Shown: positions 3,681 to 63,591, counted from the first letter of the stretch. The stretch: 64,000 bases of DNA from an uncultured delta proteobacterium (GCA_963770975.1 CAVYRM010000008.1:79858-143857), one strand, 5' to 3'. Numbers and translations are program-made. The notes: generated from the sequence alone by a model not told the origin.

Positions 3681-5386
3681 ATGAGCGAAAGCCGCCTTGT
3701 ACGTTATCGCGTTGATCGTTGCATTCTCGCTCTTCCCTCCCCGTCGGATACGCATCTCCCGCCCGGGCGGATCTTCCCCTGGTGGGTGGCAAACCGGCGC
3801 TTGCCAGGATCAACGGGGAACCCCTCATGCTGGAGGAATTCGAGCGGGCGCTCGCCGGGATCCACGCGGGGATGGCGGACAATACCCAGCGATCCATGCC
3901 GCACCCTTCCCAATTGCTGGATCGGCTGATCAACGCCAAGCTGGTTCTCCAGGAAGCGCGCAATATCGGGCTCGACGAATTGCCGGAAGTCCAAAGCGCG
4001 GAGAAGGCCTTCGAAGAGGATACGCTTCGGGGGATGCTGTACGGCTACCACGTGCGGAATATCCTGAAACCCGATCCGAAAGAGGTGGAAAAACGGTACC
4101 GGGAAGCGGTGAAAGAGGTGAAGGTGATCTCCGTTCTCTTCGACAAGGAAGAGGACGCGAAACGGCTGGAGGCCGAGTCAAGGCGGGGGGGAAATTCGAG
4201 GTGCTGGCGAAAAAAAGGATCGATTTCCGGAGAGGCGAAGGGAAGCGTCGAAGGGCAATACCTGAAATTCGATTCCTTGAGCCCCGAGGTCGCAAGGCGG
4301 TACTTCCCATGAAGAAGGGGGAAGTCAGCCCGTTGATCCGGATCGGGAAACAGTTCTCCCTGCTGAAGCTGGAGGCCATCCGGTATCCGAAGGACAACGC
4401 CGCCCGGGAACAGGCCGAAAAAGAGGCGTTGCAGGCGAAAAGGGTCGTCGCTCTGAAGGCGTATACCGACGGGCTGCGGAAGAAGTACGTCAAGGTCGAC
4501 CGGAAGCTTTTCGACACGATCGACTACGAAGCGGCGGAGCCCGGGTTCGAGAAACTCCGGGAGGATCGACGCGTCGTGGCCGACCGTGAAGGGGGAAACG
4601 CCGGTCACCGTGGGGGACCTGACGGTGGCCCTCGAGAAGAAGTTCTTCCACGGCGCGGAACGGGCCGCCGGGGAGAAGAAGATCAACCGGAAGAAGGACC
4701 AGGTGCTCGAGGAGATCCTGAACAAGCGGGTCACCATCAAGGAAGCGAAAATCCAGAAGCTCGACCGCACGGAATATTTCAAGGTGAAGACGGCGGAAAA
4801 CCGGAACGGCGTCCTGTTCGGGGCGTTCGTGCAGAAGGTGATCGTCCCGGACGTCAAGGTCGGCGAGGAAGAGTTGAAGTCTTATTACCAGGCGCACATC
4901 GGCGACTACACGTTTCCGGAAATGGTGCGGATCGACAGCCTGGTGTTTTCCGACCAGGGAGAACGCGGAAGACGGCGATCGGTGAAGTTGCGCGGAGGGG
5001 CGGATTTCCAGTGGCTCCGGGCGAACGCGGACGGCCAGGTCGACCCGGCGAAGGGGGAAAACCTGCTGGAGTTCGGCGGGCAGCTGCTGGACACGACCAC
5101 CCTGCCCGAGGGAGTCCGGAAGGCGATCTCCGGGGCGGCGGCGGGAGATTACCGTCTATACGCGGATCCGGGCGACGCATACTACGTTCTGGTGCTCCTG
5201 GAACGGATTCCTTCCCGGCCCATCCCCCTGGAATCGGTGAAGGGGGAAATGGAAAAGAAGGTCTTTTCCGAAAAGCTCGAGCGTGTGTTGCGGGACTGGG
5301 AAGAGAAGCTCCGGAAAGCTTCGGACGTGAAAATCTACGCCACGGGCGAGAAACTGGACCGGATCGTCAATCCCGGGGCCAGGTAA
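3681..5386 (+). CDS. Periplasmic SurA/PpiD-like chaperone with a parvulin (PpiC-type) PPIase domain. At least four frame changes.
   Basis: The signal peptide is YVIALIVAFSLF. Then ALARINGEPLMLEEFERAL...LLDRLINAKLVLQEARNIG, a parvulin-like core KAGGKFEVLAKK...GEVSPLIRIGKQFSLLKLE, and a second half ending GDYRLYADPGDAYYVLVLLERIPSRPIPLESVKGEMEKKV. The shifts sit at a G-run near 4180, an A-run near 4210, near 4295 and near 4580. Confidence 0.6.
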
Positions 5387-5413
5387 CTTTTAACCATCGA
5401 TTCGGGAGACCGT

Positions 5414-7412
5414 ATGCCGACCATCCCCTTGAAGCGCACTTTCGTGTTCATTCGGCGTGATCCTCGCTCTTGCGGGAGCGGCCTTCCTCGCTTCCCGCGG
5501 ATCTTCCTGGGCCGAGCCGCGCAAGTTTGAACGGAAGGGATGCCTCGATTGCCACAAGAAGTTTTCGGAAAAATACCTTTCCCTGAAGGCGCTGCACCCC
5601 GGCATGAAGGAGGGGAAGTGCGAGGATTGCCATCTCCGGCACGGCATCGTTCCCAAGCTCCTCCTGAAAAAAGACGGGAACGAACTGTGCTACTCCTGCC
5701 ATGCCAGGGAGAAGATCGGGCTGAACCAGCCGAACGTGCACACGGTCCTGAAGACGGGGAAGTGCACCTCCTGCCATAACCCGCACGGCTCCCAGGGGAG
5801 CCACCTGCTGAAGGCGGAAGGGCCGGAGGCGTGCTACCAGTGCCACAAGAAAGAGGCGTATCAGCGGAAGGTGGTCCACGCGGTTCTCCAGAAGGACGGG
5901 TGCCGGGTATGCCACAACCCCCACAGTTCCACCGAGCCCGACCTGCTCGTCAAGGCGAAAACGCCCCTTGTGCCTCTCCTGCCACGATCCCGGCAAGGGG
6001 TCCTTCAGGAAAGCGCACGGGAATTACCCCGTGGAATCCAAATCGTGCACCGGGTGCCACGACCCGCACTCCTCCTCACAGAAGATGCTCCTGAAGGCGA
6101 GCGCGCACAATCCCGTGCTGGAAAAAAGCTGCGACGCGTGCCACCCGTCGCCCGACTCCAAGACGCCCTTCGCGGCGTCGGAGAAGGGAGGGAAGCTCTG
6201 CTACCAGTGCCACGACGAAGCCAAGCTGAAGGCGGGGGGACGGTTCTCCACAACCCGTTCGGAGGCGGGGAATGCCTCTCCTGCCACGATCCTCATGCAT
6301 CGCCGAACCCGAATCTCCTGGCAAGGAAGGGGAACGGACTCTGCCTCGAATGCCACGGGGAGCAGGGAAAGCCGGTGGCGAAGGGGCACGCGGCGGTGAC
6401 GAAGGGGAAAGGGTGTCTCTCCTGCCACAAGCCGCATGCCGCCGTGAACAAGGGGCTCCTCGTCGCGAAAGACGCGGAACTCTGCTACACCTGCCATGCG
6501 AAGGTGAAGGCGAGCCTGAAATCGAAAACGCAGCATGTACCGTTTTCCAAGGGGGAATGCTCCTCCTGCCACAACCCCCACGGGTCCGATCTCCCGGGGA
6601 TCTTGAAGGACCGGGAGGACAAGGTCTGCTACGCCTGCCACGCGGACGCGGAATCGGGTTTCGTCAAGAAAACCATCCACAAGCCGGTCCTCTCGGGGAA
6701 CTGCGGCGCGTGCCACGCGGCGCACGGTTCGGACGAGGGGAAGCTTCTGAAGAAAGCGGGCGCGTCCCTGTGCGCCGATTGCCACAAGGACCTGATGAAG
6801 GAAGTGACCGGCGGCGTCCGCCACGACCCGTTCAAGGGGGGCGAGTGCCTGACGTGCCATAACGCCCACGCGTCCGATTTCGGGGGAATGCTCGTCGCGA
6901 AGCAGGACAAGGTCTGCTTCGAGTGCCACTCCGAACTGAAGGACGGGTTGAAAGGCGGAAAGAGCCGCCATGCCCCGGTTTCGGGAGGGGAGTGCACGAA
7001 GTGCCACAGCCCCCACCAGTCGAAGCTGAACAAGCTTCTGCTGGCGCAGGGACCGGACCTCTGCCTCACCTGCCACAAGGATCTCAAGGAGAAGATGCAG
7101 AAGGAGAAGACGCACTCGCCCGCGGGGCGCGATTGCCTGCGGTGCCACGGCCCCCATTTCACGGCGCAGGGGAACCTCCTGGCCAAGCCCGTGCAGGCGC
7201 TATGCTCCGAATGCCACAACGTGAAGGACGCGTCCTTCGGCAAGGCGCACTTCAACATCGACCCGGCGGTGATGAACTGCATCAGCTGCCACACGCCCCA
7301 CGCATCGAAGGATCCGAAATTCTTCAAGGAAAAAGTGCACGCACCGTTTGCCGGGCGGTCCTGCGAGGATTGCCACCTACCAGCACCAGCGATGACAGGG
7401 GATAAAACATGA
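5414..7412 (+). CDS. 26-heme c-type cytochrome built from tandem doubled-CXXCH units. Two compensating frame changes lie near 5960 and 6240, and possibly one in the signal peptide.
   Basis: I counted 26 CxxCH motifs: 6 in frame A (5457-5965), 4 in the 5968 frame (CLSCH, CTGCH, CDACH, CYQCH) and 16 back in frame A. The recurring unit is LCxxCH...H.P...G.CxxCH.PH.S....LL. ATG 5414 with a GGGAG ribosome-binding site gives the signal peptide. The stop overlaps the next start (ATGA at 7409-7412). Confidence 0.8.
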
Positions 7413-8682
7413 CGCTTCGAACCAAGACCGCTCTGGTCCTCCTCGCGATCGTTTCCACGATGGCGGTTTCCTTGTCGCACGCCCAGGACAAGTTCCGCCT
7501 GAAGCCCGGGGCGAAGGGGAAGGTCTGCCTTACCTGCCACGAGTCGTTCAAGGAGAAGCTGAAGCTGCCGTTCGTCCACACGCCGGTCAAGGCGGGGGAC
7601 TGTTCGGACTGCCACAACCCGCACACCTCCTCCTACGGGAAGCTCCTCGCGGAGAACGTGAACCGGATCTGCTTCTCGTGCCACGGCGGGATCGTGCCGG
7701 CGAAGGCGCGAAGCGCCCACAAGGTGGTCGCGGAAGGGAACTGCGTGAAGTGCCACGATCCGCACGCCGCGAAAAACAGGAACAACCTGCTTGCCGCCGG
7801 GAACGAGCTCTGTTTCGGCTGCCACCAGCGCATCGCCAAGGAGGTCGCGGGGAACAAGTTCAAGCACAGCCCCGTGGAGAAAGGGTGCCTCAACTGCCAC
7901 ACTCCGCACGGTTCCGCGAAAACGCTTTCCCTGCTGAAAACCGACGTCCCGGGCATCTGCGTGGCGTGCCACAAGCCGGACGCCCCCGCGTTCGGGAAGG
8001 CGCACATGGGATACCCGGTGGCGAAGTCGAACTGCACCTCCTGCCACGACCCCCACGGTCGGCAACAGCCGGGGCATTCTCTGGGGGAAGCCGCACCAGC
8101 CCGTCGCGAACAAGATGTGCAACCAGTGCCACCTGGATCCGTCCTCCCCGGACGCGCTGAAAACCCGCAAGGCGGGGTACGAGCTCTGCCGCGGCTGCCA
8201 CAATGCCAAGATGAACGAAATCCTGGGCAGGAAGCGGATTCACTGGCCCGTGGTGGACAAGAGCGTCGTGCCAGAACTGCCACCGTCCGCACGCCTCCCG
8301 GGAGAACGCCCTGCTGAAGGAGCCGCAGCTTCCGCTCTGCGGCGAGTGCCACCAGGACACCATCGAGCGGTTGGAAAAATCCGCGGTGAAGCACAAGCCG
8401 GCCCAGGAGGGGAACTGCACGAAGTGCCACATGCCGCACTCCTCGAACAACGTCCTCCTGCTCGATAACACGAGCCCGATCAATCTGTGCGGCACCTGCC
8501 ACGACTGGCAGAAGCATTCCTCCCATCCGATCGGCGAGAAGGTGATCGACAAGCGGAACCGGAACCTCACCATGGACTGCAGCAGCTGCCACGCCCCGCA
8601 CGGGTCCGATCAGAAGCGGTTCACCTGGTACGACGTCAAGATGGACCTTTGCGTGCAATGCCACGAACAATACAAGAGGTGA
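7409..8682 (+). CDS. 16-heme c-type cytochrome of the doubled-CXXCH type. About three frame changes.
   Basis: The signal peptide is MTLRTKTALVLLAIVSTMAVSLSHA. There are 16 CxxCH motifs across the ORFs at 7409, 8115 and 8371, plus a short segment CQNCHRPHASRENALLKEPQLPLCGECH read near 8270-8340. It ends in ...CVQCHEQYKR. Confidence 0.75.
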
Positions 8683-8686
8683 CCCG

Positions 8687-9592
8687 ATGCGCCGCGTCCT
8701 GAAATATGTCCTCCTCGCTTCGATGAGCCTTGCGGCCGCCGGCGGCTCCCATGCGGCCGAGCAGGTCAAGTTCAAGCAGATGGCCCCGATCTACGTGGAC
8801 GGGAAAGGGGCGGGGATCCGGCAGCCGGAAGGCGTCGCCTGCCGGGGGAACGCCCTTGTGGTGGCCGACACGGGGAACGGCCGGCTCCTGCGGTACACGA
8901 TCGCCGGGGAAACATGGACGCCCGGCGGGGAAATCGTCCTGCCCCAGCTGACGTCCCCGATTCGCGTGGACGTCAATTCGAAGGGGGAGATCTTCGCGCT
9001 GGACGGGACACTCCCGCAAGATCGTGCGGATCGCCCCGTCCGGCGACTTCCTGGGGTACGTCGCGCCTGCGGGGGAGGTACAGGGGGCCATCGTGCCGCG
9101 AAGCCTCCGGTTCGACGGGCAGGACAACTTGTACCTGCTCGACGTCCTCTCCGCCCGGATCCTCGTGTTGGACCCGTCCGGAAAGGTTCAGCGGGAGATT
9201 CCCTTTCCGAAGGGATACGGCTTTCTCTCGGACCTCGCCGTGGATGCGGGCGGGAACGTCTATCTGCTGGACAGCGTCCGGAAGAGGGTGCTACAAGGTG
9301 GCGAAAAACTCTGCCGAAGCGGCTCCGCTGACGGGAAGTCTGAAGGAAGAAGCGTATTTCCCCACTCTCCATCGCCACGGACAAACAGGGAACGATCTTC
9401 CTGGTCGACCAGAACGGCAGCGGGGTCGTCATCCTCGGGCCGGACGGCTCTTTCCGCGGGCGTCGCTTGAGCATGGGATGGAAGGAAGGGTTCCTGAGAT
9501 ACCCGGCGCAGATGTGCATCACGGAGAACGGCACCGCGTTCATCGCGGACCGGGGGAACAACCGGGTCGACGGCTTCCTGATCACGGAATAA
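8687..9592 (+). CDS. Secreted NHL-repeat beta-propeller protein. About three frame changes.
   Basis: The signal peptide is MRRVLKYVLLASMSLAAAGGSHA. The NHL-like repeats are GIRQPEGVACRGNALVVADTGNGRLLRY, IRVDVNSKGEIFALDG, LRFDGQDNLYLLDVLSARILVLD, LAVDAGGNVYLLDSV, DKQGTIFLVDQNGSGVVILG and ITENGTAFIADRGNNRVDGF. The stop is at 9590-9592. Confidence 0.65.
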
Positions 9593-9611: not shown

Positions 9612-12600
9612 GTGATCCCGTTCCTGTACCTGCTGTTCTTCCTGTCGGGCGCCGCCGCGTTGGCCTATCAGGTGGTGTGGGTCCGCTCCCTGCAACTCGT
9701 CTTCGGCGGTTCCCATTTTGCGGTAACGGCAGTCCTCTCCGTGTTCATGGCGGGCCTTGCGCTGGGAAGCCATCTCCTCGGGAAACGTGTCGACACTCTC
9801 CGAAGACCGCTGCGGCTATACGGCATCCTCGAGATCGGGATCGCCGTCTTCGCCGTTCTCTTTCTTCTCCTGACGAAATTTTATCCTTACCTTTACGTTC
9901 CCCTGTGCCCGTGTGGCGGAAGAAAACACCCTGTACCTGTCGTTTCTCCGCGTCATGTTCGCCGTGGTCGCGATGATCGTCCCCACCACGCTGATGGGGG
10001 GGACCCTGCCCGTATTGACGAAGTTCGCTTCGGAGCATTCCCGGGAGGCCGGGGAGCACGTTTCCTTCCTGTACGGGTTCAATACCCTGGGAGCCGTGGC
10101 CGGCACGCTGCTGGCCGGATTCGTCCTGCTGCCGCGATTTTCCGTCATCGGCACATCCGCCATCGCGATCGCCACGAACGCTTTTATCGGTCTCGCATCC
10201 ATCGCCCTTGCGCAAAGACGGGTTTTTTCGGAGGTTGAGGGTGCGGGATCTCCCCGGATCACCGGCTCGTCGCGAGGGAAAGCAACCAGGATAACCGCGC
10301 CAGAGAGTCCGCGGTTCCATCCGTTTCCGTCGAGCTGGTCCTCTGGGGGATCGGAATCAGCGGTTTCTGCGCCTTGGGGTACGAGGTTCTCTGGACCCGG
10401 GTCCTTTCGATGGTCGTCGGCGCCAGCGTATACAGTTTCACCGTCATGCTGGTGTCCTTTCTCACGGGAATCGCGCTCGGGAGCAAGGCGTTCGGCTTTT
10501 TCATAAGGAGGTTCCCGGGAGCGTGCGGGACGCCGGGAAGGGCGGTTCTGTTTTTCGGGGCCGTGCAGGTGCTCATCGGCCTCACCGCCCTGGTCGTTAC
10601 GTATTTCATCCGGGACCTTCCTTCCCACGCCATCCGGATCCAGAACTACCTGCTTGGAACCGGCATCAGCGAGTTCGAGGTCCGGCAGGGGGCGAACTTC
10701 GCGGTCGCCTTCTCCCACATGTTCATCCCGGCATTCTTCATGGGGGTGGCGTTTCCGCTGGCCGGAAAGATCCGTGTCGATGGCCGGAGGTCGGCCGGAG
10801 AGGCCATCGGGGAGGTTTCGGCGTATAACACGATCGGCGCGATCCTGGGTGCCGCCTTCAGCGGGTTCTTTTTGATCTACCTGTTCGGCATCGAGCGGTC
10901 GCTGCAATTCCTTGCCCTGATCAATGTGGGGGCAGGGATCCTGATCGCCGCCAGCGCGTGGAAGCGCCCGGTGGTGACGTGGGGGATCGCGGGGGCCACG
11001 GCCGCCGTCATCGCGATGCTGGCGCTTCACCCGGGTCTTTGGAGGATGTGGGACCTGAAATATTTCGCCATCTACCGCAACAACACGCGGGAAGCATTCA
11101 ACACGGCCTTCAACATGAAGGATGCGATGGAAAACACCGACGTGCTTTATTACGCCGAAGGCGTGCAGGCGACGGTGAGCGCGATCAAGGTGAAGGGCGG
11201 CTCCCAGGCGTTCATCACCAACGGGCGAATCGAGGCCTCGAACCAGAAGGAAGGGATCCAGTGCCAATACACCCTGGGCCACCTTCCCATGCTTCTGAAC
11301 AAAAACCCGAGGAAAGTGTTCGTGCTGGGCACGGGAAGCGGGATGACCCTCGGGGCGACTTCCGTGCACCCGAGCGTGGAAGAGATCGTCCTTGCGGAGA
11401 TCGAGCCGAAAGTCCTGGGAGTGGCGAGGACGTTTTCAAGGTACAACCACGATGTGCTCGACAATCCGAAGCTGCGGATCGTCTTCAACGACGGGCGAAA
11501 TTACCTGATGACCACGAAAAAGAAGTTCGACGTCATCACGGCGGACCCGATCCATCCCTGGTTCAGCGGCGCGGGCTATCTCTATACCGCGGAGTATTTC
11601 CGGCTGGCCGCGGAGCATCTCAACCCCGGCGGGATCGCCTGCCAGTGGCTTCCGATCTACGAATTGAGCGTGGACGACCTGAAATGCGTCGTGAAAACAT
11701 TCTCGGAGAATTTTCGATACACCATGCTCTGGCTGACCCGGAACGATGCGGAACTTGTGGGGAGCAACGATCCGATCGTCATCGACGAGGAGGAACTGGA
11801 ACGGCGTATCGCGGCGCCGGGAGTCTTCGACGATCTGAAGAGCGTCGACATGGGATCGGCGGATGATTTCCTCGCCTATTTCGTCATGGGAACGAAGGGA
11901 ATGAAAGAGTTCGGAGCGGGGGGAGTGATCAATACCGACGACAACCTGCATCTCGAATTTTCCGCCCCGATGTCCATGGATGTTCCCACCCAGGGGAGAG
12001 AACGCGCGACGCCCTGTACCGGTACCGGGAATCCCTGCTGCCTTACCTGCTTCCTGCAACGGGGATTGCCGCACGGAACGCCCAGATCGAACGGACCGAA
12101 CGGAATTTCCGGGCAGGCGAGAACATACGCCCTGGCGCATGTCCTGTTCCTGAGCGGTGGATCTGGAACCCCTGAATTTGCCAGAGATCATGGGAGAACT
12201 GGAACGCGACGTATCCGGAATATGCCCCCGTACAAGTTCCTGAAGGGCGAGGTTCGGGATCTGGTGGCAATGACCCCGACACTGATCCGTGCGGAGAAAT
12301 TTCATGATGCTGAACGATTCGGGCAGCAGCGTGGTCGTGGAAATCTCCGCGGTGAAGGTGCGCATCGGGGAGGAGAGGACGGCGGTGGTCTTCGTGGACA
12401 ATCGGACCCGGACGATATACGGACAGAAGTATATCGATGCGAAAAAGGAAGATCTTGGAGGAGGGAGTCCGGCGATATGCAGAGGATGTCTTGTCGAGTC
12501 TGAAGAGTACTTACCGGAGAGAAGCAGCCCTCGCGGTGCGTGATGGGAGGAAATATCCCTCTTGCGGAACACCACATTACGGAAAATCAAGTGAAATCAT

Positions 12601-14857: not shown

Positions 14858-15181
14858 TTACTTCCTGTTTTCGAGCACGTATATGTAAAGCTCCCTGCAC
14901 ATTTGCAGTCGCCGGAGGTATACCTTCCGGGTCGGTTCCTCCTCCGCCTCGATTTGCGGCTTCAGGGCATCGCACCGCGCGATCAAATCCTTGAGCTCCT
15001 CCGCGGAAAGCGTCATCGCGACGTCGGTTTTCGAGCAGACCGCCTCGTACTCCGGCTTCCACCGATCCTCGGCCTGCGATACCGAGGGTCCGGACAAGGG
15101 GTGTCCGGCCGGCAGGGGACTCCAGGAGAGAAGGATGACCGTGGCGACGGCGCAAAGGATGCCGGATGCGAATCGTCTCAC
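14858..15181 (-). CDS. Small secreted Cys-containing hypothetical protein, translationally coupled to the upstream cytochrome.
   Basis: The GTG start at 15181 overlaps the TGA stop of the 15178-15924 gene (GTGA). The signal-like N-terminus is RRFASGILCAVATVILLS. The mature part has 3 Cys and a charged helical tail. Confidence 0.4.
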   Translation of the reverse strand: MRRFASGILCAVATVILLSWSPLPAGHPLSGPSVSQAEDRWKPEYEAVCSKTDVAMTLSAEELKDLIARCDALKPQIEAEEEPTRKVYLRRLQMCRELYIYVLENRK

Positions 15182-15924: not shown

Positions 15925-15927
15925 GAA

Positions 15928-48813: not shown

Positions 48814-48828
48814 GCGAAAGGTGCCGCG

Positions 48829-53003: not shown

Positions 53004-53075
53004 GATCCGGCTACGCCGATACCCGTTTACAATTTCCGGCGGACAGCTCCTTCCGGATCGGATATAATCGGGGCC

Positions 53076-54541
53076 ATGGCGCGATCGAGGATCCTCGTGG
53101 TGGACGACGAGCGGATGATCCGCTGGTCGATCCAGCAGACCCTTTCGAAGGACGGCCACGTCCGTGGCCGCCGTGGAGACGGGCGAGGAGGCGGTGGCGC
53201 AGGCGACCGACGAGATGCCCGACCTCGTCTTCCTCGACATCACCCTCCCGGGGATCGACGGCATCGAGGTGCTCCGGCGCCTCAAGGCCCTGGACCCGTC
53301 CGTCGCCGTCGTGATGGTCACCGCCACCGACGACCTGAAGACCGCCGTCGAGGCGATGCGCCTGGGCGCCTACGACTACGTCAGCAAGCCGTTCGACCTC
53401 GACCGCCTGCGGGTGATCGCCCAGAACGCGCTCGACCGTCACGAGTTGCGCCAGGAGGTCGAGTTCCACCGGAAGGAGTCGGTGAAGCGGTACGGGTTCC
53501 ACCGGATCGTCGGTTCGAGCCGGAAACTCGCGGAAGTGGTCGAGGTGGCGAGGAAGGTGGCGAAATCGGACGCCGCGACCGTGCTGCTCCAGGGGGAGAG
53601 CGGCGTCGGGGAAGGACCTGTTCGCCCAGGCGATCCATTACGAGAGCGCCCGCGCCACGCGGCCCGTTCATCCCGATCAACTGCACCGCCCTGCCCGAGG
53701 AACTGCTCGAATCCGAGCTGATGGGGCACGAGAAAGGCGCCTTCACGGACGCGAAGTTCGCGAAGAAGGGGCTCTTCGAGGTGGCCGACGGCGGGACGAT
53801 CTTCCTCGACGAGATCGGCGACATGAAGCCCGGCCTCCAGGCGAAGCTCCTGCGCTTCATCGAGAACAAGGTCTTCCGCCGGGTCGGCGGGCACCGGGAC
53901 ATCTCCGTCGACGTCCGCATCGTGGCGGCGACGAACCGGAACCTCGACGAGCTCGTCCGCACGGGGCGAGTTCCGGGAAGACCTCTTCTTCCGGCTGAAC
54001 GTGATCCCGATCCGCATCCCGCCCCTGCGGGAGCGCCGCGAGGACATCCTGCCCCTGGCGGAGCATTTCTTCTCCGAGTTTTCCAACGACATCCGGAGGC
54101 CCGGGAGCGGTTTCTCGGACCTCGCGAAGCGCCAGATGACGGCGTACGACTGGCCGGGGAATGTCCGCGAGATGCGGAATATCATCGAGCGCGCGCTGAT
54201 CCTCGGCGCGGCGGGCATCGTGGAGCGCCTCGACCTCCCCGTGCCGACCGGGGCGCCGGAGCGTCCCGGGCGTCCCTGGCCGGACCGGCTCCTCCCCGAA
54301 CCGGCCCGGGTGGGGAGCCGATTCGCATCCCCGGGGATCGGAGCCCTCATCCGGCGGCGCCGGCCGGAGCGGACACGGATTCCGCCTCCCGCCCTCCGGG
54401 ATCGTGCTCGAGGACCTCGAACGGGACCTCCTGCTCCAGGCGCTGGAGACGACCCAGGGGAACCAGACGAAAGCGGCGGAGATGCTCGGCCTCACCCGGG
54501 ACGCCCTCCGGTACCGGATGAAGAAATTCGGCTTCCTGTAA
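53076..54541 (+). CDS. Sigma-54-dependent response regulator (NtrC family), with at least five frame changes.
   Basis: It has the receiver [12 protein letters not shown]...[14 protein letters not shown]...YDYVSKPFD, the AAA+ core [11 protein letters not shown]...[15 protein letters not shown]...[12 protein letters not shown]...[11 protein letters not shown]...[19 protein letters not shown], and the [29 protein letters not shown] (stop 54539-54541). Confidence 0.8.
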
Positions 54542-54671: not shown

Positions 54672-54687
54672 TGGCATCAAACATGCT
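54672..54687 (+). promoter_or_regulatory. Near-consensus sigma-54 (-24/-12) promoter for the FN3/NHL-cytochrome operon.
   Basis: TGGCAT-CAAAC-ATGCT has exact GG-N10-GC spacing. It lies 20 nt upstream of a strong ribosome-binding site (AGGAGGGGG) and ATG 54707, immediately downstream of a sigma-54 activator gene. Confidence 0.6.
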
Positions 54688-54706: not shown

Positions 54707-56365
54707 ATGGGAACCGTCATGTGCGTTAAATCACGCAGAACAGGAGGCGCGAACGTGAACCAGAGGGGGATTTCGAAAGTGAAAAACGTGTCGAAGTATG
54801 CTACGGCGTGCGTGCTGGCATTGGCGATGTTCGCGGCTGCGGGAAGCGGCGGCGGCCGCTCTTGCCGGCGCCCAACTGGATGCCGGGTTCTCCGATCATG
54901 GCGGGGACCCAGGTCATCCTGCTCTGGCTGCCCATCCCGAACGCCGTGAAATACAACATCTACCTCAACGGGAAGAAGATCGGTGAATCCCCCGCGGTGC
55001 AGTACATGATGGCCTCTCCGACCGAGTCCGGGAGAATATTCGATCCTGATCGCGGCTGTGGATGCCGCCGGGGCGGAGGGTGCGAAGTCGGCCCCCGGCG
55101 TCATCCGGATCGTGACGGTGAATCCCCCCGCCTCGGTCTACGGCCGGGTAATGGAGAACAAGGTCCAACTCAAGTGGGACCAGGCCAAAGGCGCCGTAAT
55201 CTACAACGTGTACCGGGCCGACAAGGAGACGGGGGAGGCCAAGCTCCTCTCCTCGGTCCAGAGCGACGCCTATACCGATTCGGCGGTTCAGCAGGGGAAG
55301 GCGTACTTCTACTCCGTCACCGCGAAAGACCTCGCGGGGAAAGAAAGCGCCAAATCGAAACCATACCGCATCGAGGTCCCCCTGCCGCAGTCCGCCGCAG
55401 TGAAGGAGGCCAAGGTCGAGATCAAGGTCGTCGCGACGAACCCCGTGGCGGAGAGCCTCTTCCTCGGATCGAAAAAGATCGAGATGTTCGGCGACATGAA
55501 GCCCGGCCCGGACGGCCACATCTATGTGCTCGACGCCGGCCAGAGGCAGGTCCTGAAACTCGAACCCAAATCCCTCGAAGTCGTCTCGGTCTTCCCCTCC
55601 ACGCCGGAGGAGAAGGAGAAGATGAGACGCCCCCTCTCCATCGGATTTACCTCCGACGGGCGGGCCTTCATCGTGGACCCATTCGCCCGGAAGGTTTTCG
55701 TTTTCGACGCCGCCGGGAAGATGGTGTCCGAATTCCCGGTCCCCGCGCCGACCGACAAGGAGGTCGTCCAGAACGTCCTGCCGCACCTCCGGGACCAGGG
55801 GATTTTCCCGTCCGGGATCCATGTGGACGAGAAGGAGAAGACGATCTGGATCACCGACCCCCGGTTCAACACGATCTACCGGTTCGACCTCGACGGGAAA
55901 TTCCTCGGGAACCTGGGGCACGGAGGGGACCCCGAACAGTACTTCGCCGGGCCGGGCGAAATCCTTGCGGACCGCAACGGCACCGACCTCTACGTCACGG
56001 AGCCTCTGGCCCACATCGTCCTGGTGATCGACCGGAATAACGGCAAGATCAAGCGGATGATCGGGAGGAAGGCGTCGGGCTTCATCGGGGGCTTCATCGG
56101 TCAATCGGGGATTACCTACGACCCGGAAGGAAACGTGGTGATCTCCGACGCCGGGGTCCATTCGATCCAGGTCTTCGACGGAAAGACGGGGGCGTACCTC
56201 TACCACTTCGGGGACGAGTCCGGAAAAGTGGATCCGAAGATGACGGAGCGGGCGCTCCTGGGAATCGAGATGCCGAACCGGGCGTTCGTCCGCGGGAACA
56301 TGCTCTACATCTTCCGGGCCGACAAGATGAACGTCGTCTCCCGGGAAATCGTGAAGAAGAAGTAG
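54707..56365 (+). CDS. Secreted protein with two fibronectin-III-like domains and a C-terminal NHL-repeat beta-propeller. About three frame changes lie in the first 350 nt.
   Basis: The signal-like N-terminus is YATACVLALAMFAAAGS. The FN3-like segments are ILLWLPIPNAVKYNIYLNGKKIGES and VQLKWDQAKGAVIYNVYRADKETGE...YFYSVTAKDLAGKES. The NHL-like repeats are DGHIYVLDAGQRQVLKL, SDGRAFIVDPFARKVFVFD, KTIWITDPRFNTIYRFD, GTDLYVTEPLAHIVLVID and EGNVVISDAGVHSIQVFD. Confidence 0.7.
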
Positions 56366-56477: not shown

Positions 56478-58903
56478 ATGAGAAACCGTTACTTGCTCCT
56501 CGCAGCCCTTATCGGGGTCTTCGCGCTCGCCGCGGGCCCGCCTTCGCGGGGGTCCAAGGCACAGCCCACCAGACGTACGGTCGGGTCGCAGGGCGTCTGT
56601 TCCGCCTGCCACATCCCGCACGGCGGCCAGGGGGGCACAGGGACCCGACTCTGGCCGATCGCCGCGACGACCACGGCTACATCACCCACCGTCCTCGTCG
56701 GCACCGTGTCCACCCTCTGCGCATCGTGCCACCTCGCCGGCAGCGCCTACAACACTTCGATGGGCTCTGCGTTCTCCCCGCAACGCGCTTACCATCAAGA
56801 CGGCCACGGGGGCAAGATGACGGTCGCCAACATTACCAGTGGCGGCCTGGGATCGAGCAGCATGGCCACCTCGGGGCTGCCGTACATCGCGAACACCACG
56901 CTGGAGTGCACCAGCTGCCATAACGTGCACGACGACACGAACCGTCCGTTCCTCCGTGCGGAGATGGACGCCCTCTGCTCCTACTGCCACAGCAACCGGA
57001 TGTTCAAGGCGTCGGTAGAGAACTCCGGAAACGGCGCCACGAAGGGCGCCTGGGGCATCACGTACGTCGGCGGTGCGAACCCCGGTTCCCACCCCGTGGG
57101 GACCGACATCACCGGCAACGTCTCCGGCGGGCCCTCCCCCATCACGCTGGCGGGGAACTTCATCCTCCCGAAGACGAGCGCGTCGGGGACATGGTCCCTC
57201 GGCGGCCACCTGTCGGACAACAACGGCACCGGCAACTCCCTCAACGGCGTGACGTGCAACACCTGCCACGCGGTTCACGGGATCGAAGTGGATGGCGTCG
57301 CCGGCGGAAGCGTCCCGGTCACCAATTTCCTTGTGGTTGCGCAAAGCACGGGGACCAACGAAGGGGTCACCGGGCACTCGATCGCCAGCGGCGACGGCAG
57401 CGCGGGGAACGACCTCTGCGAGGCGTGCCACACCGGACCCGCTCCCGCAGGATACGGCGGATCCCGGAGAGTAAACCCCGGAGACAACGTCTCCACCCAC
57501 CCGGTGGACGACTACGCGTCCCAGAACGAACTGGTGGGGGATTTCAGAGCCGCCACCGGGACGTTGAACTGGCCCGCTTCCTCCACGGCGTCCGGAACGG
57601 GGAACGCCGCCATCTGCGAGTCGTGCCACACCCCGCACCCGCGGGCCAACATCGGCCGCGCCACCATCAAATTCGCTTCGGGGACGACGATCACCCCGTA
57701 CATCCTCCGCAACACGGCGGCACTCATCTGCAGCGACTGCCACAGCCCCAGCGGGGCTACGTTCGGGACGCACCACCCGGTCGGGACCGGCGGGGGCGGG
57801 ACGTCATGGGCGTCGGCCAAGTCGGGCGCCGCCAGCTACTTGCCCGGGATCACCACCGAGCTGTTGTGCAGCACCTGCCACGGCGGCGGGGGCGCGGGCG
57901 GGGCCCATAACTGGACGGGCCGCTCCTGGGTCGGCATGGTTCCCGGTTGGAAACCTGTGAACAACGCCCGGGTGGCGGGCACCGGGTACCGGTATGCCGC
58001 CTCCCCGAACCCCGTAACGACGCAGGACATCTCCTCCACCTGCATCGACTGCCACCTCGACCTCGACGGGACGACGACGAACACGTCTCCGACGAAGCAT
58101 AACGGGACGGCTACCGGGACGCGATCGACCAAGCACAGTACACGAACCTCGGCACGGGAAGCCACTTCATCGGCCCGCTCGATAACGTCAGTTGGTTCAC
58201 CAACCGGGCGATCCCGACGTCCACCAACCGCGGGTCGACCACGAACTTCAATGCAGCCACCGACAACTGGACGTCGGCCATTTTCGGAACAGGGAATGCG
58301 AACGGCGGCATCTCACGGTTCGGCGGGACCGCCTCCGCTCCGATCCTGGTGTGCGAGTCGTGCCACAACCTGGTGCCGTCCAGGAACGTGGGGCCGCATA
58401 TGCTCCTGGCCGGGTTCTATGAAGGGCAATCGACCCAATCCGGCACCCAATACGATACGTTATGCGAGGGGTGCCACGGCGTTCCGACCGGAACGCATCA
58501 GCAGAGCGCGGATCTTGTCGGCCGCACGAATGCGTTATTGGACACCTCGGCAGGATCTACCACCCGCACCTGGATCAGAACAAGCGCTCCCGCGGGCGTT
58601 CCTGTCGGCGGGGTTGCGGGCACATCCACCTGGTTAACCGGTGTCGCCGGAACCGGACAGCTGTCGTGCGACTCGTGCCACCAGGTCCACGACGCGAACA
58701 CGCTGGGCGCCTCCCTGATCATCGAGGCCCCGGCCGGCAACGTCACGGGCGGCACGCCGGCGACCGTCGTCGTCAGCGGGACACCGACGTACTACGGCGG
58801 GACCAACCCGATCAATTACCGCCTGAAGGGGCAGGCTCCGACCAAAGGCACGATGCCGGACGTCTCGATGTTCTGCGATCAATGCCACACCTACCGGCAG
58901 TAG
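56478..58903 (+). CDS. Large (about 808 aa) secreted Thr/Gly/Ser-rich c-type cytochrome with 14 widely spaced CxxCH motifs. One frame change near 58105.
   Basis: The ribosome-binding site is AAGGAGGA. The signal peptide is MRNRYLLLAALIGVFALAAG. The motifs are CSACH, CASCH, CTSCH, CSYCH, CNTCH, CEACH, CESCH, CSDCH, CSTCH, CIDCH, CESCH, CEGCH, CDSCH and CDQCH. There are about 18 additional His, including recurrent (S/T)HPV. After KHNG the sense continues in the frame of the 58349 ORF as GYRDAIDQAQYTNLG. Confidence 0.75.
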
Positions 58904-58986: not shown

Positions 58987-59535
58987 ATGATGAGAAAAGG
59001 CATCCTGCTATACCTGTTGATCGTGTTCGGGGTGGTCCTGTTGACGGTTCCCGCGTCTTTCGCCGCCGAAGAGAAGGCCGCGCCGGCCGAGGCGCCGAAG
59101 ATCCCGGGTGTGGGCGACATGGCGCCGGCGTTCTCCCTCCCCTCGCTGGACGGCAAGACCGTCACCACGAAGGATATCGCGGGAGGGAAGCCGGTTTCCG
59201 TCGTCATCTTCATGAGTACGGCGTGCTCGGCCTGCCAGACGGAGATCGCCGCCGTGGACCAGATCCTCAGCAAATACGGCGATAAGGTCGACATGTTCCT
59301 CATCGCCGTCGACGCCCGCGGGGCGGAGACGGTGAAACCGTTCTCGGATACGTTCAAGTACAAGGCCACGTACCTCCTCGACACGAAGTTCACGGTGCCC
59401 CGGATGTTCGGGTTCTCCGCCACTCCGTCGGTGATCGTGCTCGACAAGGCGGGGAAGATCCTGCTGAAGAAGGCCGGATACCAGGTCGGCGACGCGGAGG
59501 AGATCCAGGAGGCCGCGATCAAGTTCACGAAGTAG
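58987..59535 (+). CDS. Secreted TlpA/ResA-like thioredoxin (CSAC).
   Basis: It is intact. The signal peptide is KGILLYLLIVFGVVLLTVPASFA. The core is APAFSLPSLDGKTV...VVIFMSTACSACQTE...FLIAVDARG...SATPSVIVLDKAG. Confidence 0.75.
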   Translation: MMRKGILLYLLIVFGVVLLTVPASFAAEEKAAPAEAPKIPGVGDMAPAFSLPSLDGKTVTTKDIAGGKPVSVVIFMSTACSACQTEIAAVDQILSKYGDKVDMFLIAVDARGAETVKPFSDTFKYKATYLLDTKFTVPRMFGFSATPSVIVLDKAGKILLKKAGYQVGDAEEIQEAAIKFTK

Positions 59536-59612: not shown

Positions 59613-61286
59613 ATGAGAAGACACATCGCCGCATCGCTGGCTGCGTTGTTCGTCTGGACGGCGGCGGCAGGCCCCGCCGATACGGCCTTCGGGGCGACCT
59701 CTGCGGCGAAAAAAGACGGGGGGAAGGCGACCGTTGCCCCCGACGTGGTGGCGGTGATCGACGGCGTCCCGCTGAAGGTTTCGAGCCTCGGCCTGGTGCG
59801 GCTCCTGGGGTTTTCCGGCAAACACGGCGAGCCCGTCGCGAAGGCGGACCTGCTGGACAAGCTCGTGGAGGTGGAGCTCGTCGTCCGTTACGCGGAAGGG
59901 AAAGACCTCCCCACCCCCGGGAAGGGGAAGGAACTCCTCGCCCTGTTCCGCGAGACCACCCTCGGGATGGAGTACGCCGAGGAGATGAAGCGGACCGTCC
60001 GGTTCGACGCATCGGAAATCCGGGACCGGCTCCCGCTGAAGTGGAAAGTGGCGAGCTTCGAGGTCGTCCTGTACGACACGCTCGACGAGGCGAAGGCCGA
60101 CGCGGCTTCGGTGAAAACCGTTGAGGAGTTCGAGGCCCTGAAGGCGAAATATCCGGACCGTGCCAAGGCGTTCGACAACCTCTACCCGAAATCCGGCTTC
60201 TTCAACGAGTACGACGACATCGCCATCTTTAACCGGGAATCCGCCGGAGTATACGGGGTGGGGGAGACCGGGATCGGGCCAGGGATCCTCCGGATCCGGG
60301 AGATCCGGGAGCCCGCGGAGGCCGAAAAGGAGGGACTCCTCCGGAAAGCAACCGCGACGTTGGCGGAAGTCCAGTTCTCAAGGGAGGCGGACCGTTTACG
60401 GCAGGATACGCCGCGCCGTATCGACAGGAAGGCCCTCCTGCGATACGTGGAGTCCGTCCGCTCCGGAGGACCGGTGGACATCCCGGTGGCGACCATCGGG
60501 GAGTGGACGATCACCAGCGGATTGGTCCGCAATTTTGTGGTAAACGAGCCGGTGAATTTCATGAGGGCGTCGAAAATCGAGGAGGTTGCGGGCGCCTACG
60601 TCGATATCCTGAACCGCCTGGCGGACACTCTCGCTTTTGCGGCCGAGGCCAGAAAGCAAGGTCACGACGACATCCGGTCCGACCAGTACGGGAATTCGTA
60701 CCGCAGCTTCCGGAAGAAGCTTCTGTACACGGCAGGGCTGGAAGACGGCGTCGGTCCCGTCGCCGCGTCGGACAACGAAGTCCGGGAATATTACGAGGCG
60801 AATCGGAAGACGAGGTTCACCCCGGCAGAACGCGTGGAGGCGGCCCACATCTTCTCGAAAGAAAAGAAGAAAGTGGATAAGGCGCTCAAGCGGATCAAGG
60901 CGGGGGAGAGCTTCGAGGAAGTGGCGAAAGAGGTGTCCGAGGATTCCCGGTCCGCCTCCAGGGGCGGAGCGATCGGGTGGATTCTGAAGGACGGGAAAGT
61001 GCTCCCGGAGTTCGAGGAGCAGGCATTCAAACTGAAGGGGAAGCCGGGGGCGGTTTCCCCCGTATTCAAGACCACAAATGGATACCATGTCCTGAAGGTA
61101 ATCAGTTACCACCCGGAGAAGGAGATCCCTTTCGAAAAGGCGGAGCCGATAGTGCGGAGAGACCTGGAGAATGCCCGGTTCGAGGCCGGGAAGAAGGCGT
61201 TCCTTGAAGGGCTGCGGAAGAATGCGACCGTCACGACATACCCGGAGAACGTGCCGGACGCCCCGGCGAAAGCGAGCCACCGATGA
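59613..61286 (+). CDS. Periplasmic SurA/PrsA-like chaperone with a PpiC-type (parvulin) PPIase domain.
   Basis: It is intact at 557 aa. The signal peptide is RRHIAASLAALFVWTAAAGPADTAFG. The parvulin core is RVEAAHIFSKEKK...GESFEEVAKEVSEDSRSASRGGAIGWI...VSPVFKTTNGYHVLKV. Confidence 0.75.
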   Translation: MRRHIAASLAALFVWTAAAGPADTAFGATSAAKKDGGKATVAPDVVAVIDGVPLKVSSLGLVRLLGFSGKHGEPVAKADLLDKLVEVELVVRYAEGKDLPTPGKGKELLALFRETTLGMEYAEEMKRTVRFDASEIRDRLPLKWKVASFEVVLYDTLDEAKADAASVKTVEEFEALKAKYPDRAKAFDNLYPKSGFFNEYDDIAIFNRESAGVYGVGETGIGPGILRIREIREPAEAEKEGLLRKATATLAEVQFSREADRLRQDTPRRIDRKALLRYVESVRSGGPVDIPVATIGEWTITSGLVRNFVVNEPVNFMRASKIEEVAGAYVDILNRLADTLAFAAEARKQGHDDIRSDQYGNSYRSFRKKLLYTAGLEDGVGPVAASDNEVREYYEANRKTRFTPAERVEAAHIFSKEKKKVDKALKRIKAGESFEEVAKEVSEDSRSASRGGAIGWILKDGKVLPEFEEQAFKLKGKPGAVSPVFKTTNGYHVLKVISYHPEKEIPFEKAEPIVRRDLENARFEAGKKAFLEGLRKNATVTTYPENVPDAPAKASHR

Positions 61287-61834
61287 GCGGAAAGGAAAGA
61301 TCGATGCCCGGGTTCGTCGTTCGGATCCCGTTCGTCCTGGCGTTCCTGATCCTCGCCGCCGGCGCGTCGTTCGCCGACCCGGCGGGGAAAGGGGTAAAGG
61401 CCGGACAGGCCGCACCCTCCTTCTCCGGCGTTTCGACCGCGGGAACCCCGGTGGATTCGAAAGATCTCCTGTCGAAGAACCGGGCGGTCCTCGTCGCTTT
61501 CTGGGGGATCCGATGCGCCGCGTGCATCGATGAAGTCCCGGCGCTTCGAAAGATCCAGGGCGAGTTTCCGGAAGGCACCCTCCAGGTGGTGGGAGTGAAC
61601 ACGGACGGCGTGGACGCCCCCACGCTTTCGGCCATGATGGAGGAAGAGAAGATCGCCATGAATTACATCGTCCTGACCGACCCCGGGTTCAAGGTCGTCG
61701 ATTCGTTCGGGATGACCGCGGCTCCTCTCACGATTCTCATCGACCGGGAAGGGAAGGTTCGTTATGTCCACCAGGATTACAAACCGGGGGATGAAATCGA
61801 ATTGCGCGGAAAGATCCTCGAAGCGGTCAAATAA
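61283..61834 (+). CDS. Secreted TlpA-like thioredoxin (CAAC).
   Basis: It is intact. The core is AAPSFSGVSTAGTPV...VLVAFWGIRCAACIDEVP...VVGVNTDG...TAAPLTILIDREG. The start overlaps the upstream stop. Confidence 0.75.
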   Translation: MSGKERSMPGFVVRIPFVLAFLILAAGASFADPAGKGVKAGQAAPSFSGVSTAGTPVDSKDLLSKNRAVLVAFWGIRCAACIDEVPALRKIQGEFPEGTLQVVGVNTDGVDAPTLSAMMEEEKIAMNYIVLTDPGFKVVDSFGMTAAPLTILIDREGKVRYVHQDYKPGDEIELRGKILEAVK

Positions 61835-61871
61835 TCCCTTGTCCTTCGCGAGGAACTCCGATTTCCATGGT

Positions 61872-63030
61872 TTGTCGCGATGCCGGGTCTTGCTGTTCCG
61901 GGGGATCGTATCCGTTTCCCTGCTCATTGCATCCCTCATGCTGGGGAAAATCCTTCAAGCCTCGGCGGGAGTCCCTGCGTATATCGGCTCCGAAAAATGC
62001 GCCTCCTGCCACCAGATCCAGTACAAGGGGTGGGTCAAGACGTTCCACAGCACCGTGGTGGGGGATGCGAAGAAGGACCCCTCGGTGATCATGGCCGACA
62101 TGTCCGACCCCGATCTGCCGTTCAAGAAGGAGGATATCCACTACACGATCGGCGGCCACTGGGACCAGCGGTACCTGACGAAGATCGGCGACGACTATTA
62201 CATCCTTCCCCGTCTCTGGTCCGTGCAGAGCAGCAAGTGGCGCCCCTACAGCACCTACGGCTGGCAGAAGCGCCCCTACTCGAAATATTGCATCGGCTGC
62301 CACTCCGTCGGCTTCGACCCGAAGACGCGCGGGGTCGTGGAGCACTCCGTCGGGTGCGAGTCGTGCCACGGCGCCGGAGTCGCCCACTCGGCGAAACCGA
62401 GCAGGGAGAACATCGTCAACCCGAAGCGGCTTTCCGAGGACAGGTCGGAGGAGATCTGCGCCTCCTGCCACGTGCGCGGGAAGGACCTTTCCGGGGAATA
62501 CTTCTTCCAGCTCGGGTGGAAGCCCGGGGACGACCTCGCGAAGTACTATGTTCCGCTCGACAAGAACGAGGGGGAGAGCAACGACGACGCCATCCACCGC
62601 CTCTGGGACCAAGTGGAGATCCGACCGGGAGTCGCAGTCCCGCTCCCGGTGCGAGGTGTGCGGCATCCACCAGAACGTGAAACCCCAGGGGGAGAAGATC
62701 AGCGTCGACGCCATCTGCATGAGCTGCCACGAGTACGACGAGAAGCAGCTTTCCCTGCACACCCGCCACAAGACGCTTGCGAGCGTCGGCTGCACGGATT
62801 GCCACGAGGAGAAAGAACCGGACCTGAATGAAAACCGCGAGAACAACGTCCATTCCTACGGCTACTTCCTGATCCACCCGCAAGGGTGCTGGGACGACAA
62901 GATCCACAACCGGTGCGGGAAATGCCACGCTGACAAGCCGAAGAAATGGGCTTATGATACGGTGTTGAGGTTGGAAAAAACCGGTCGTGATCGACCACTG
63001 ATATCTTCACTCTCCTCGGGGGCAGGGTGA
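61872..63030 (+). CDS. Multiheme c-type cytochrome of the cytochrome c554-like family (7 CxxCH plus one CxxCGxH). One frame change near 62600; both ends are uncertain.
   Basis: The signal-like N-terminus is RVLLFRGIVSVSLLIASLMLGKILQASA. It has CASCH followed by QYKGWVKTFH and IGGHWDQRYL, then CIGCH, CESCH, CASCH, CEVCGIH, CMSCH, CTDCH and CGKCH. An A-run near 62975 could place the true stop at about 63000. Confidence 0.6.
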
Positions 63031-63591
63031 TGAGAACCGCTTTCAGGATGGCACCGGTACTTCTGTGCATGGTGTTCGCGTTGGGGCTTGGAGCGTCGCC
63101 CGCCCTGGCCGCGGGCGACACCGCGATGCGCTTGAAGATCGGCGAAAAAGCTCCGGATTTTCGCCTCAAGGACGTGATGACCGGGAAGACGGTCACCCTC
63201 TCCGAGTTCGCGGGGAAAAAGGTCGTCATGCTCGAGTTCTGGGCGACCTGGTGCGACATCTGCAAGCGGGAGATGCCCAACCTCGTCAAGTTGCACACAC
63301 GCGTGGGGGCCCAAGGGGTTCGAGCTCCTCTCCATCGTGCTCCCGTCGGGGAACATCGCCGACGTGAAGAAGATCATCACGGAAAAGAAGCTGACCTACC
63401 CCGCGCTGCTCGACGCCGACCTGTCGGTGGCGACGAAGCTCTACGGGCTCGCCGGCCCCATTCCGCTCAAGGTCGTGATCGACCACAAGGGGATCATTCG
63501 CTACTCCCACGTGGGGGATTACCCGCCGGGCGAGGACGAGTTGCCGTTCGTCCTCGAGGACCTCGTGAAGGAGATGGGGAAGGGAAAATGA
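63027..63591 (+). CDS. Secreted TlpA-like thioredoxin (CDIC), with one frame change near 63305.
   Basis: The signal peptide is MAPVLLCMVFALGLGASPALA. The core is APDFRLKDVMTGKTV...VVMLEFWATWCDICKREMP, then (in the 63337 frame) FELLSIVLPSGN...YPALLDADL...IPLKVVIDHKG. Confidence 0.7.

Follow-up and report, generated by a model that had tools for sequence, protein, structure and literature searches.

Two conserved gene groups combining an NHL propeller, a SurA/parvulin-like chaperone and multiheme cytochromes in an uncultured delta proteobacterium

Background

Reviews describe it as an open question by what means very large cytochromes are folded, exported and mounted on the outside of bacterial cells. 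The present analysis concerns a DNA stretch of 64,000 nucleotides (nt) from an uncultured delta proteobacterium (GCA_963770975.1, CAVYRM010000008.1:79858-143857), the whole of which is called the window below, and two groups of genes in it, locus 1 and locus 3, each encoding a parvulin chaperone, multiheme cytochromes and an NHL propeller. The closest described system is osc (OmcS-companion) of Geobacter sulfurreducens, which comprises GSU2500-GSU2493 with omcS, omcT and oscC and was published by Shen et al. 2025 (Cell Chem Biol 32:239); it is described here after the citing passages of PMC13194489, 10.1101/2025.11.06.686851 and PMC13712944. In the first of these, oscC is equated with GSU2501, oscI with GSU2495 and oscJ with GSU2494, and Shen et al. 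are credited with assigning OscH to folding, OscE, OscF and OscG to secretion, and OscD to nanowire morphology. According to the relevant passages of 10.1101/2025.11.06.686851, GSU2495 is a 26-heme protein of ~70 kDa, and GSU2500-GSU2493 form an eight-gene block that is tied to OmcS nanowire maturation and secretion and always occurs with a hexaheme gene of the GSU2501 type; the carriers named there include G. luticola and Geobacter sp. H2geo. As these papers tell it, Shen et al. reported for Geobacter that osc is needed in OmcS filament assembly; the client, on this account, is the OmcS-type filament and not the 26- and 16-heme proteins encoded alongside.

Three other systems have related gene content. 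The uet (undecaheme electron transfer) cluster of Tenderiales and Gallionella encodes cytochromes, the peptidyl-prolyl isomerase (PPIase) UetB and the NHL proteins UetH and UetI, with ccsAB and TPR genes nearby (10.1101/2022.05.06.490989; PMC10734462). Desulfovibrio ferrophilus IS5 has two outer-membrane cytochrome clusters (DFE_0448-0451 and DFE_0461-0465), each with an NHL propeller that was proposed to stabilise the complex (PMC5815863; PMC9769857). The omcE nanowire clusters of Desulfuromonadia contain multiheme cytochromes and beta-propeller lipoproteins next to resB/ccsB, followed by glycosyltransferases of families 2, 4 and 39 (PMC13712944). NHL genes beside cytochrome genes have thus been noted before (D. 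ferrophilus, uet, OmcE), and locus 1 appears to be a new member of a published system.

The reading that we strongly favour is that the window holds two distinct cassettes, each conserved in other genomes, in which a secreted NHL propeller and a SurA/PrsA-like chaperone are encoded beside exported multiheme cytochromes, with locus 1 belonging to osc and locus 3 being a paralogous system. The original prediction had named the same three components at both loci, and Pfam matches together with counts of CxxCH motifs confirm them. The products of both loci all carry signal peptides or lipoboxes.

Gene content and conservation of locus 1

For genes split by frame switches, stitched proteins were obtained by frameshift-tolerant translation based on codon usage. 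By tblastn, window positions 1-9592 hold the genes for the barrel, two lipoproteins, the chaperone, two cytochromes and the NHL protein. Since the barrel and the lipoproteins map from position 1 onwards, locus 1 begins upstream of position 3681, where it had been predicted to start. Its genes, with lengths in amino acids (aa), are the following.

1-1762 (+): OscE-like outer-membrane beta-barrel, 5' end cut by the window start; tblastn match to residues 140-725 of the 725-aa protein of relative L005, 80-93% identity
1810-2391 (+): OscF-like lipoprotein of the LpoB/GNA1162 type; Pfam GNA1162-like 3e-8, LpoB 1e-7
2472-3515 (+): OscG-like lipoprotein, short form without PKD repeats, frameshifted; tblastn match to residues 602-947 of the 961-aa protein of L005
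~3716-5386 (+): OscH-like SurA/parvulin chaperone; stitched 565 aa, at least 4 frame switches
5457-7412 (+): OscI-like 26-heme periplasmic cytochrome; Paired_CXXCH_1 E 4e-134
7409-8682 (+): OscJ-like 16-heme cytochrome; 14-16 CxxCH, two frame switches
8687-9592 (+): OscK-like NHL six-bladed propeller, ~300 aa, secreted; three frame switches, stitched NHL 1.5e-16

In L005 the 725-aa protein carries a signal peptide, and its last residues, VRVPF, are typical of outer-membrane proteins. The OscF-like protein is 89% identical to a 194-aa protein of the same relative that bears a lipobox, and short OscG forms (375-445 aa) also occur in Geobacter and Nitrospirota loci. As for the chaperone, Pfam detects Rotamase_2 in two stretches (E 1.4e-25), SurA_N_3 (2e-6) and Rotamase (1e-4) in the stitched protein; the largest open reading frame (ORF) of this region, 3697-5460, was rejected as the chaperone gene, being in the wrong frame and having no Pfam match. 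The stitched OscI-like copy, which carries indels, shows 24 CxxCH motifs, compared with 26 in intact orthologues (658-660 aa), and an intact 423-aa orthologue of the OscJ-like protein has 16. For the OscK-like protein, the PDB matches are PknD-NHL and Pizza6 (E ~1e-23).

Adjacency within the window is weak evidence for a functional link, because about one quarter of its genes encode cytochromes: those with at least three CxxCH motifs number ~13 of ~55 genes, and by our own estimate a random window gene has a ~40% chance of a cytochrome neighbour. The test must therefore rest on the synteny seen in other genomes. Homologues of the locus 1 chaperone number 292; identity is 59% or more throughout the best 120, whose lengths are 556-566 aa, and some homologues carry source names such as Candidatus Deferrimicrobium. 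Relatives with 60-78% identity share one gene order, in which a 406-428-aa hexaheme protein, a YncE-like propeller, the 725-aa protein, an LpoB-like lipoprotein and a PKD-rich lipoprotein are followed by the chaperone, the 658-660-aa cytochrome, the 423-aa cytochrome and the 300-aa NHL protein. A full HMMER search with the latter returned 328 representatives at E<1e-30, ~100 of them single-domain proteins of ~300 aa.

A scan of one genome per species, seeded by a 9-sequence alignment sharing VADTGNGR[LI] and hence biased to OscK members with that motif, yielded 80 loci, including 59 OscK-type orthologues (at least 40% identity) and 18 generic NHL genes (23-30% identity) from other phyla. The orthologues are labelled as Deferrimicrobia, Geobacteraceae (Geobacter, Geomonas, Citrifermentans, Geomobilimonas), Nitrospirota, Acidobacteriota, Anaeromyxobacteraceae/Myxococcales, Desulfobacterales and Deferrisomatales; each feature was counted only where the flanking DNA reached far enough. 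Directly beside the OscK-type gene, 59/59 loci have a cytochrome of four or more hemes; the 16-heme gene lies directly upstream in 55/57, the 26-heme gene upstream in 52/55 and the chaperone upstream in 48/50. The barrel and the LpoB-like lipoprotein are each found nearby in 21/29 loci and the YncE-like propeller in 24/29. A cytochrome or parvulin neighbour is seen for 0/18 of the generic NHL genes, a control that stems from phyla poor in cytochromes. Cytochrome density equals 5.8 per 10 kb within 3.5 kb upstream of the OscK-type gene and 0.06-0.6 beyond 4 kb, and the NHL match begins a median of 26 nt after the stop codon of the 16-heme gene. The chaperone, the 26-heme and 16-heme cytochromes and the NHL protein thus form the most tightly kept core of the locus 1 machinery.

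These values also bear on the simplest alternative, namely that the NHL and chaperone genes are chance neighbours in a cytochrome-dense island. The composition of the window speaks for it, the estimated neighbour frequency being high. Chance would not, however, reproduce the same neighbours in 59 (locus 1) and 26 (locus 3, see below) further genomes or contigs, across phyla and with proteins 30-60% identical, and it is at odds with the sharp drop of cytochrome density away from the NHL gene and with the generic NHL control. We consider chance barely credible.

Several further features of locus 1 were recorded. Window positions 9612-12503 (L005:15922-18924) encode a polytopic membrane protein of ~1000 aa that includes a spermidine-synthase-like domain; in Deferrimicrobium-like genomes its gene comes after that of the NHL protein. 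The gene is at most 10 kb away in 8/59 orthologous loci and stands between the LpoB-like and OscG-like genes in L031. In a Nitrospirota metagenome-assembled genome (L035:6731-9898) the 26- and 16-heme genes form a single 1055-aa ORF with 42 CxxCH motifs, which may be a natural OscI-OscJ fusion or the result of a lost stop codon; the MBNT15 paper describes proteins with up to 43 hemes. A 705-aa entry of the representative library (P0206) that looked like a 16-heme/NHL fusion was discarded as a frameshift or gene-calling artefact, the C-terminal part of the cytochrome being out of frame and the NHL part keeping its own signal peptide. Among 49 OscK family sequences, C52, W264 and C276 (L005 numbering) are nearly invariant; the two cysteines lie near opposite chain ends, and a C52-C276 disulfide that closes the propeller ring is possible. 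OscK also has a conserved loop, GW..G.L.YP.

Assignment of locus 1 to the osc system

Judged by its genes and their order, locus 1 corresponds to the distal OscE-to-OscK portion of an osc machinery, and its host a Deferrimicrobium-like (MBNT15) bacterium. The osc order is propeller, barrel, two lipoproteins, PPIase, 26-heme, 16-heme and NHL protein; OscE to OscK are found in the window in this order, and OscD is found upstream in the relatives with 60-78% identity. The 26-heme landmark of the GSU2495 type is present as well, in the form of the 658-660-aa orthologues with 26 CxxCH motifs. The 406-aa hexaheme protein of relatives L005 and L006 matches OmcS (PDB 6EF8) over its full length with E 9e-116. 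The cassette was also seen in Geobacter sp. H2geo, Geomobilimonas luticola, Geomonas spp. and Citrifermentans bremense (Geobacteraceae loci L015, L023, L032, L034, L036, L037, L045, L046, L050 and L055), H2geo and G. luticola being among the carriers named in the literature. The gene letters follow by analogy from oscC=GSU2501, oscI=GSU2495 and oscJ=GSU2494, which would make OscH the chaperone and OscK the NHL protein.

If the account of the citing papers holds for locus 1, the OscE, OscF and OscG barrel and lipoproteins would secrete or mount an OmcS-type hexaheme filament, OscH would aid its folding and the propeller OscD would shape it, with the 26- and 16-heme proteins OscI and OscJ predicted to reside in the periplasm. 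Any role of OscK would be our own suggestion, the citing texts stating none in the passages that deal with the system.

Frame breaks in the window

The window has a G+C content of ~63% and numerous single-base frame switches, which split resB (44230-45592), a gltD-like gene, the sigma-54 activator and several cytochromes, as well as the stretch 41893-43711. At least 10 switches fall within 3.7-9.6 kb, a density that could indicate a decaying pseudogene cluster, in which case the recurrence of the three components would have no present function. Housekeeping genes are frame-switched too, however, and contigs of relatives from 4 independent groundwater metagenomes (~85-95% identity) contradict the window by one base at the indels while agreeing with each other. 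The indel sites include 4177, 4292, 4303, 5453, 8056, 8066 and 9010, and the switch points chosen during stitching coincide with the disagreements of the relatives. The genes are intact in every orthologous contig fetched. Because four metagenomes agree against the window and the orthologous contigs are intact, the frame breaks look like assembly errors rather than gene decay, and decay of locus 1 is very improbable. An ORF-based annotation of this genome would miscall many genes.

Gene content and conservation of locus 3

Locus 3 sits downstream of resB/ccsA, the System II maturation genes at 43.7-46.5 kb of the window, and continues past the window end. Its genes and signals are listed below.

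53076-54521 (+): sigma-54 enhancer-binding activator, frameshifted; Sigma54_activat 2e-42
54672-54687 (+): candidate sigma-54 -24/-12 promoter TGGCATcaaacATGCT (TGGCAT-N5-ATGCT); near-consensus, found by eye
54707-56365 (+): FN3-FN3-NHL propeller protein; NHL 3e-9, frame switches near the 5' end
56478-58903 (+): 14-heme Thr/Gly/Ser-rich cytochrome, 808 aa; 14 CxxCH, one frame switch
58987-59535 (+): TlpA/ResA-like periplasmic thiol-disulfide oxidoreductase; AhpC-TSA 7e-17, Redoxin 3e-16
59613-61286 (+): OscH-like SurA/parvulin chaperone, intact ORF; Rotamase 1e-18
61283-61834 (+): second TlpA-like redoxin; AhpC-TSA 1.5e-19
61791-62979 (+): 7-heme cytochrome of the c554/OcwA type, frameshifted; Cytochrome_C554 5.5e-10, tblastn coordinates
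63027-64000 (+): two further TlpA-like redoxins, frameshifted; the operon continues beyond the window

A word-indexed search with the locus 3 chaperone found four full-length homologues, all four in the same operon. Its first part consists of the sigma-54 activator, the NHL gene, a 786-808-aa cytochrome, a redoxin, the chaperone, another redoxin and a c554-like cytochrome, after which come a pair of redoxin genes, another c554-like cytochrome, and genes for a polytopic membrane protein and for glycosyltransferases. The NHL protein is more widespread, with ~46 full-length homologue clusters down to 29% identity. Across the operon relatives and 29 metagenome loci, the 14-heme cytochrome comes directly after the NHL gene in 25/26 cases, a TlpA-like redoxin is next in 14/15 and the chaperone next in 11/14; the sigma-54 activator lies just upstream of the NHL gene in 13/15. 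The original prediction had proposed that the propellers and chaperones are functionally linked to the cytochromes rather than there by chance, and had made this depend on their enrichment beside cytochrome genes in this lineage. Such enrichment is found for both loci, for locus 3 down to ~30% identity, and the synteny supports a functional link.

An intact 808-aa orthologue of the 14-heme protein has 14 CxxCH motifs and a T+S+G content of 34%. As a possible OmcS homologue this cytochrome was rejected: HHalign covers only a 20-column heme motif, and the sole PDB match is to 33 residues of OmcE. An orthologue of the 7-heme c554-like protein matches PDB 6I5B (E 5e-14), which we take to be OcwA of Thermincola. 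As for the promoter, a strict sigma-54 consensus scan found no site, so that 54672-54687 counts as a near-consensus match only. Gene callers add a conserved N-terminal extension to the NHL protein (MET..CV.SR..GGANV; window 54707-54760, alignment A4 columns 1-45). The DNA there reads AGGAGG followed by GTG, and the extension is for this reason more likely a conserved 5' leader, with ribosome-binding site and start, than protein; the true start of the gene is probably the GTG at 54756.

Upstream, window positions 43740-54521 contain a c3-type cytochrome, resB/ccsA, a 12-14-heme cytochrome, two redoxin-TPR fusions, a pentaheme cytochrome, a polyferredoxin and a sensor kinase, a stretch whose synteny with locus 3 is kept in relatives with an NHL protein of 43-55% identity. 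In relatives at 47-55% identity the conserved stretch takes in ccsA, cytochromes, the redoxin-TPR genes, the polyferredoxin and the sensor kinase, which corresponds to 46-54 kb of the window. Locus 3 may, to judge by this synteny, be the end of a conserved supercluster of ~20 kb. Downstream of the operon, L001:8928-14831 encodes a 648-aa polytopic membrane protein and glycosyltransferases (GT) of families GT2, GT9 and GT4. The 648-aa protein had been considered as a porin, which was rejected because it is a polytopic inner-membrane protein adjoining glycosyltransferases. The L001 glycosyltransferases recall the genes after omcE clusters and would fit a possible glycosylation of the Thr/Ser-rich 14-heme protein.

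Two tandem hexaheme genes at 15178-17115 (-), each consisting of two c7-type triheme domains, lie between the osc block and purC. They are placed in the same way in some Deferrimicrobium-like relatives (L010, L014) and belong to neither cassette.

Comparison of the two loci

The gene order at locus 1 is chaperone-cytochrome-cytochrome-NHL, at locus 3 it is NHL-cytochrome-redoxin-chaperone. The chaperones are 22% identical over ~510 colinear residues and the NHL proteins 21% identical, and tblastn between the loci gives no cross-match. Because the order differs, identity is low and no cross-match is found, the recurrence is not due to a recent duplication, which agrees with what had been claimed from the sequence of the window.

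The chaperones are nonetheless alike end to end in architecture. HHalign aligns their families with 99.9% probability (E 8e-36, 492 columns), and the locus 3 chaperone can be called a full-length paralogue of OscH on these profiles. Both contain a parvulin (PpiC-type) domain (Rotamase_2 1.4e-25 and Rotamase 1e-18, respectively) joined to a helical chaperone module, which is indicated by SurA_N_3 (2e-6) at locus 1 and by structural matches at locus 3. The model of the locus 3 chaperone (predicted local distance difference test, pLDDT, 84) matches PEB4/Cj1289, PrsA, Cbf2 and SurA, and looks like two tandem units, each with a helical module and a parvulin domain. In an alignment to an E. coli PpiC sequence, which we treat as a lead, both residues of the catalytic His pair are absent from both parvulin-like domains of the OscH family (48 sequences); the locus 3 window protein has both in its C-terminal domain, as do only 4-6 of 10 family members. 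Since the pair is not conserved, chaperoning is probably a likelier conserved job than isomerase activity. The cytochromes of the two loci, by comparison, appear unrelated in sequence. Locus 3 would be a paralogous solution for another client.

Regarding the propellers, profile alignment of the two NHL families gives 99.1% over 201 columns. The NHL Pfam scores of 59.9 and 36.8 bits exceed the cut-off of 20, and a six-bladed fold is found for both. The model of a 551-aa orthologue of the locus 3 protein (pLDDT 84) has two Ig-like domains and a six-bladed propeller, and matches the filamin-NHL part of Lin41 and the NHL domains of TRIM, Brat and Thin with a target TM (template modelling) score of ~0.8. 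It is also conceivable that the propellers are no assembly factors at all and act as enzymes or as ligand or mineral binders (lactonase-like or metal-binding) on the electron acceptor or the cell surface. Weak Pfam matches to SGL/gluconolactonase, phytase-like and arylesterase families suggest this, and adhesion or complex stabilisation has been proposed in the literature for NHL proteins of Geobacter metallireducens and Desulfovibrio ferrophilus. The matches, however, score below or barely at the curated thresholds and are explained by the propeller fold that these families have in common, and the OscK columns that are at least 80% conserved among Cys, His, Trp and Met comprise two Cys and one Trp only. 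An enzymatic or binding role is unlikely.

Relation of the propellers and chaperones to the adjacent cytochromes

A more serious alternative accepts the conserved linkage and assigns it to other clients. The chaperone would then act on the barrel, in the way that SurA acts on porins, or on a filament subunit encoded elsewhere; the propeller would belong to the structure that secretes or anchors, and the 26-, 16- and 14-heme proteins would be co-regulated only. Locus 1 does include a barrel and lipoproteins, the closest chaperone folds are SurA-like, and OmcE clusters too pair propeller lipoproteins with a barrel (PMC13712944); moreover, the citing papers, in their passages on osc, assign OscH to OmcS folding and OscE, OscF and OscG to secretion. 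On the other hand, the block of chaperone, 26-heme, 16-heme and NHL genes is tighter (48/50 to 55/57) than the link to the barrel (21/29) or to an OmcS-like gene, and at locus 3 the chaperone and propeller occur with no barrel gene in the conserved stretch. This alternative is a real possibility, though well short of probable.

The reading of two conserved cassettes built around the neighbouring cytochromes has to be held against several points that tell the other way. An OmcS-like gene lies at most 10 kb from the OscK-type gene in only 15/29 fully covered loci, and in this genome it would sit upstream of the window, as it does in relatives. What assigns locus 1 to osc is the fit of its gene order, of the 26-heme landmark and of the OmcS homologue in relatives, together with the citing papers. 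At locus 3 the chaperone is missing in 3/14 relatives, and none of the RNA runs searched for the locus contained it. Finally, conserved linkage shows shared function and does not thereby imply physical contact between propeller and cytochrome, and it can also come from horizontal transfer of the whole cassette.

Under the favoured reading, locus 3 could work as follows, every biochemical role being one that we infer. The sigma-54 activator would drive the operon, and sigma-54 control would couple its expression to the sensor kinase encoded upstream. The redoxins would keep the CxxCH cysteines of the apocytochrome reduced for heme ligation by the neighbouring System II (ResB/CcsA), while the chaperone would hold and fold the long 14-heme cytochrome in the periplasm. 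The FN3-FN3-NHL propeller would be a docking, anchoring or assembly scaffold for this sparse-heme cytochrome, which is probably placed on the outer surface. A literature search found no description of the locus 3 cassette or of its 14-heme cytochrome. A bolder proposal, which we offer as speculative and rather doubtful, is that locus 3 is dedicated to producing an extracellular polymer or surface array of cytochromes that represents a new class, with a 14-heme, possibly glycosylated client, OscH-like folding, TlpA-like redoxins, FN3-FN3-NHL mounting and a sigma-54 switch. If true, the pair of chaperone and propeller would be a general portable module for the assembly of long cytochromes and not a peculiarity of OmcS. 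Locus 3 supplies co-expression candidates for cytochrome wires in heterologous hosts.

Comparison with known systems

By gene content, the two separate cytochrome clusters of D. ferrophilus IS5, each with an NHL gene, resemble the arrangement in the window, but no parvulin chaperone is reported for them. The uet cluster is similar in the same sense: it has the same trio with System II genes nearby, as at 43.7-46.5 kb of the window. Neither locus, however, is a uet member, there being no 11-heme protein (UetJ) and no cupredoxin in either, nor c7 trihemes or the 28-strand porin UetC.

Like the omcE clusters, locus 3 lies downstream of resB/ccsA and is followed in relatives by a polytopic membrane protein and by GT2, GT4 and GT9 glycosyltransferases. 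It differs in that its 14-heme protein matches OmcE over a 33-residue heme motif only and its conserved part has no barrel gene, while no chaperone is described for omcE clusters.

The closest system is osc. Locus 1 has the same gene order as in G. sulfurreducens from the barrel to the NHL gene, to which close relatives add the upstream YncE-like propeller and the OmcS homologue. It is distinguished by its Deferrimicrobium-like (MBNT15) host, the short OscG and the ~1000-aa spermidine-synthase-like membrane protein after OscK, and would extend the OmcS machinery to uncultured Deferrimicrobiota. Locus 3, in contrast, resembles osc only in its OscH-like chaperone and in having an NHL fold; its cytochrome belongs to another family, TlpA-like redoxins and sigma-54 control are added, and its conserved stretch is free of barrel genes. 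The association of an OscH paralogue and an NHL propeller with cytochromes of another family suggests a module for assembly that can be reused.

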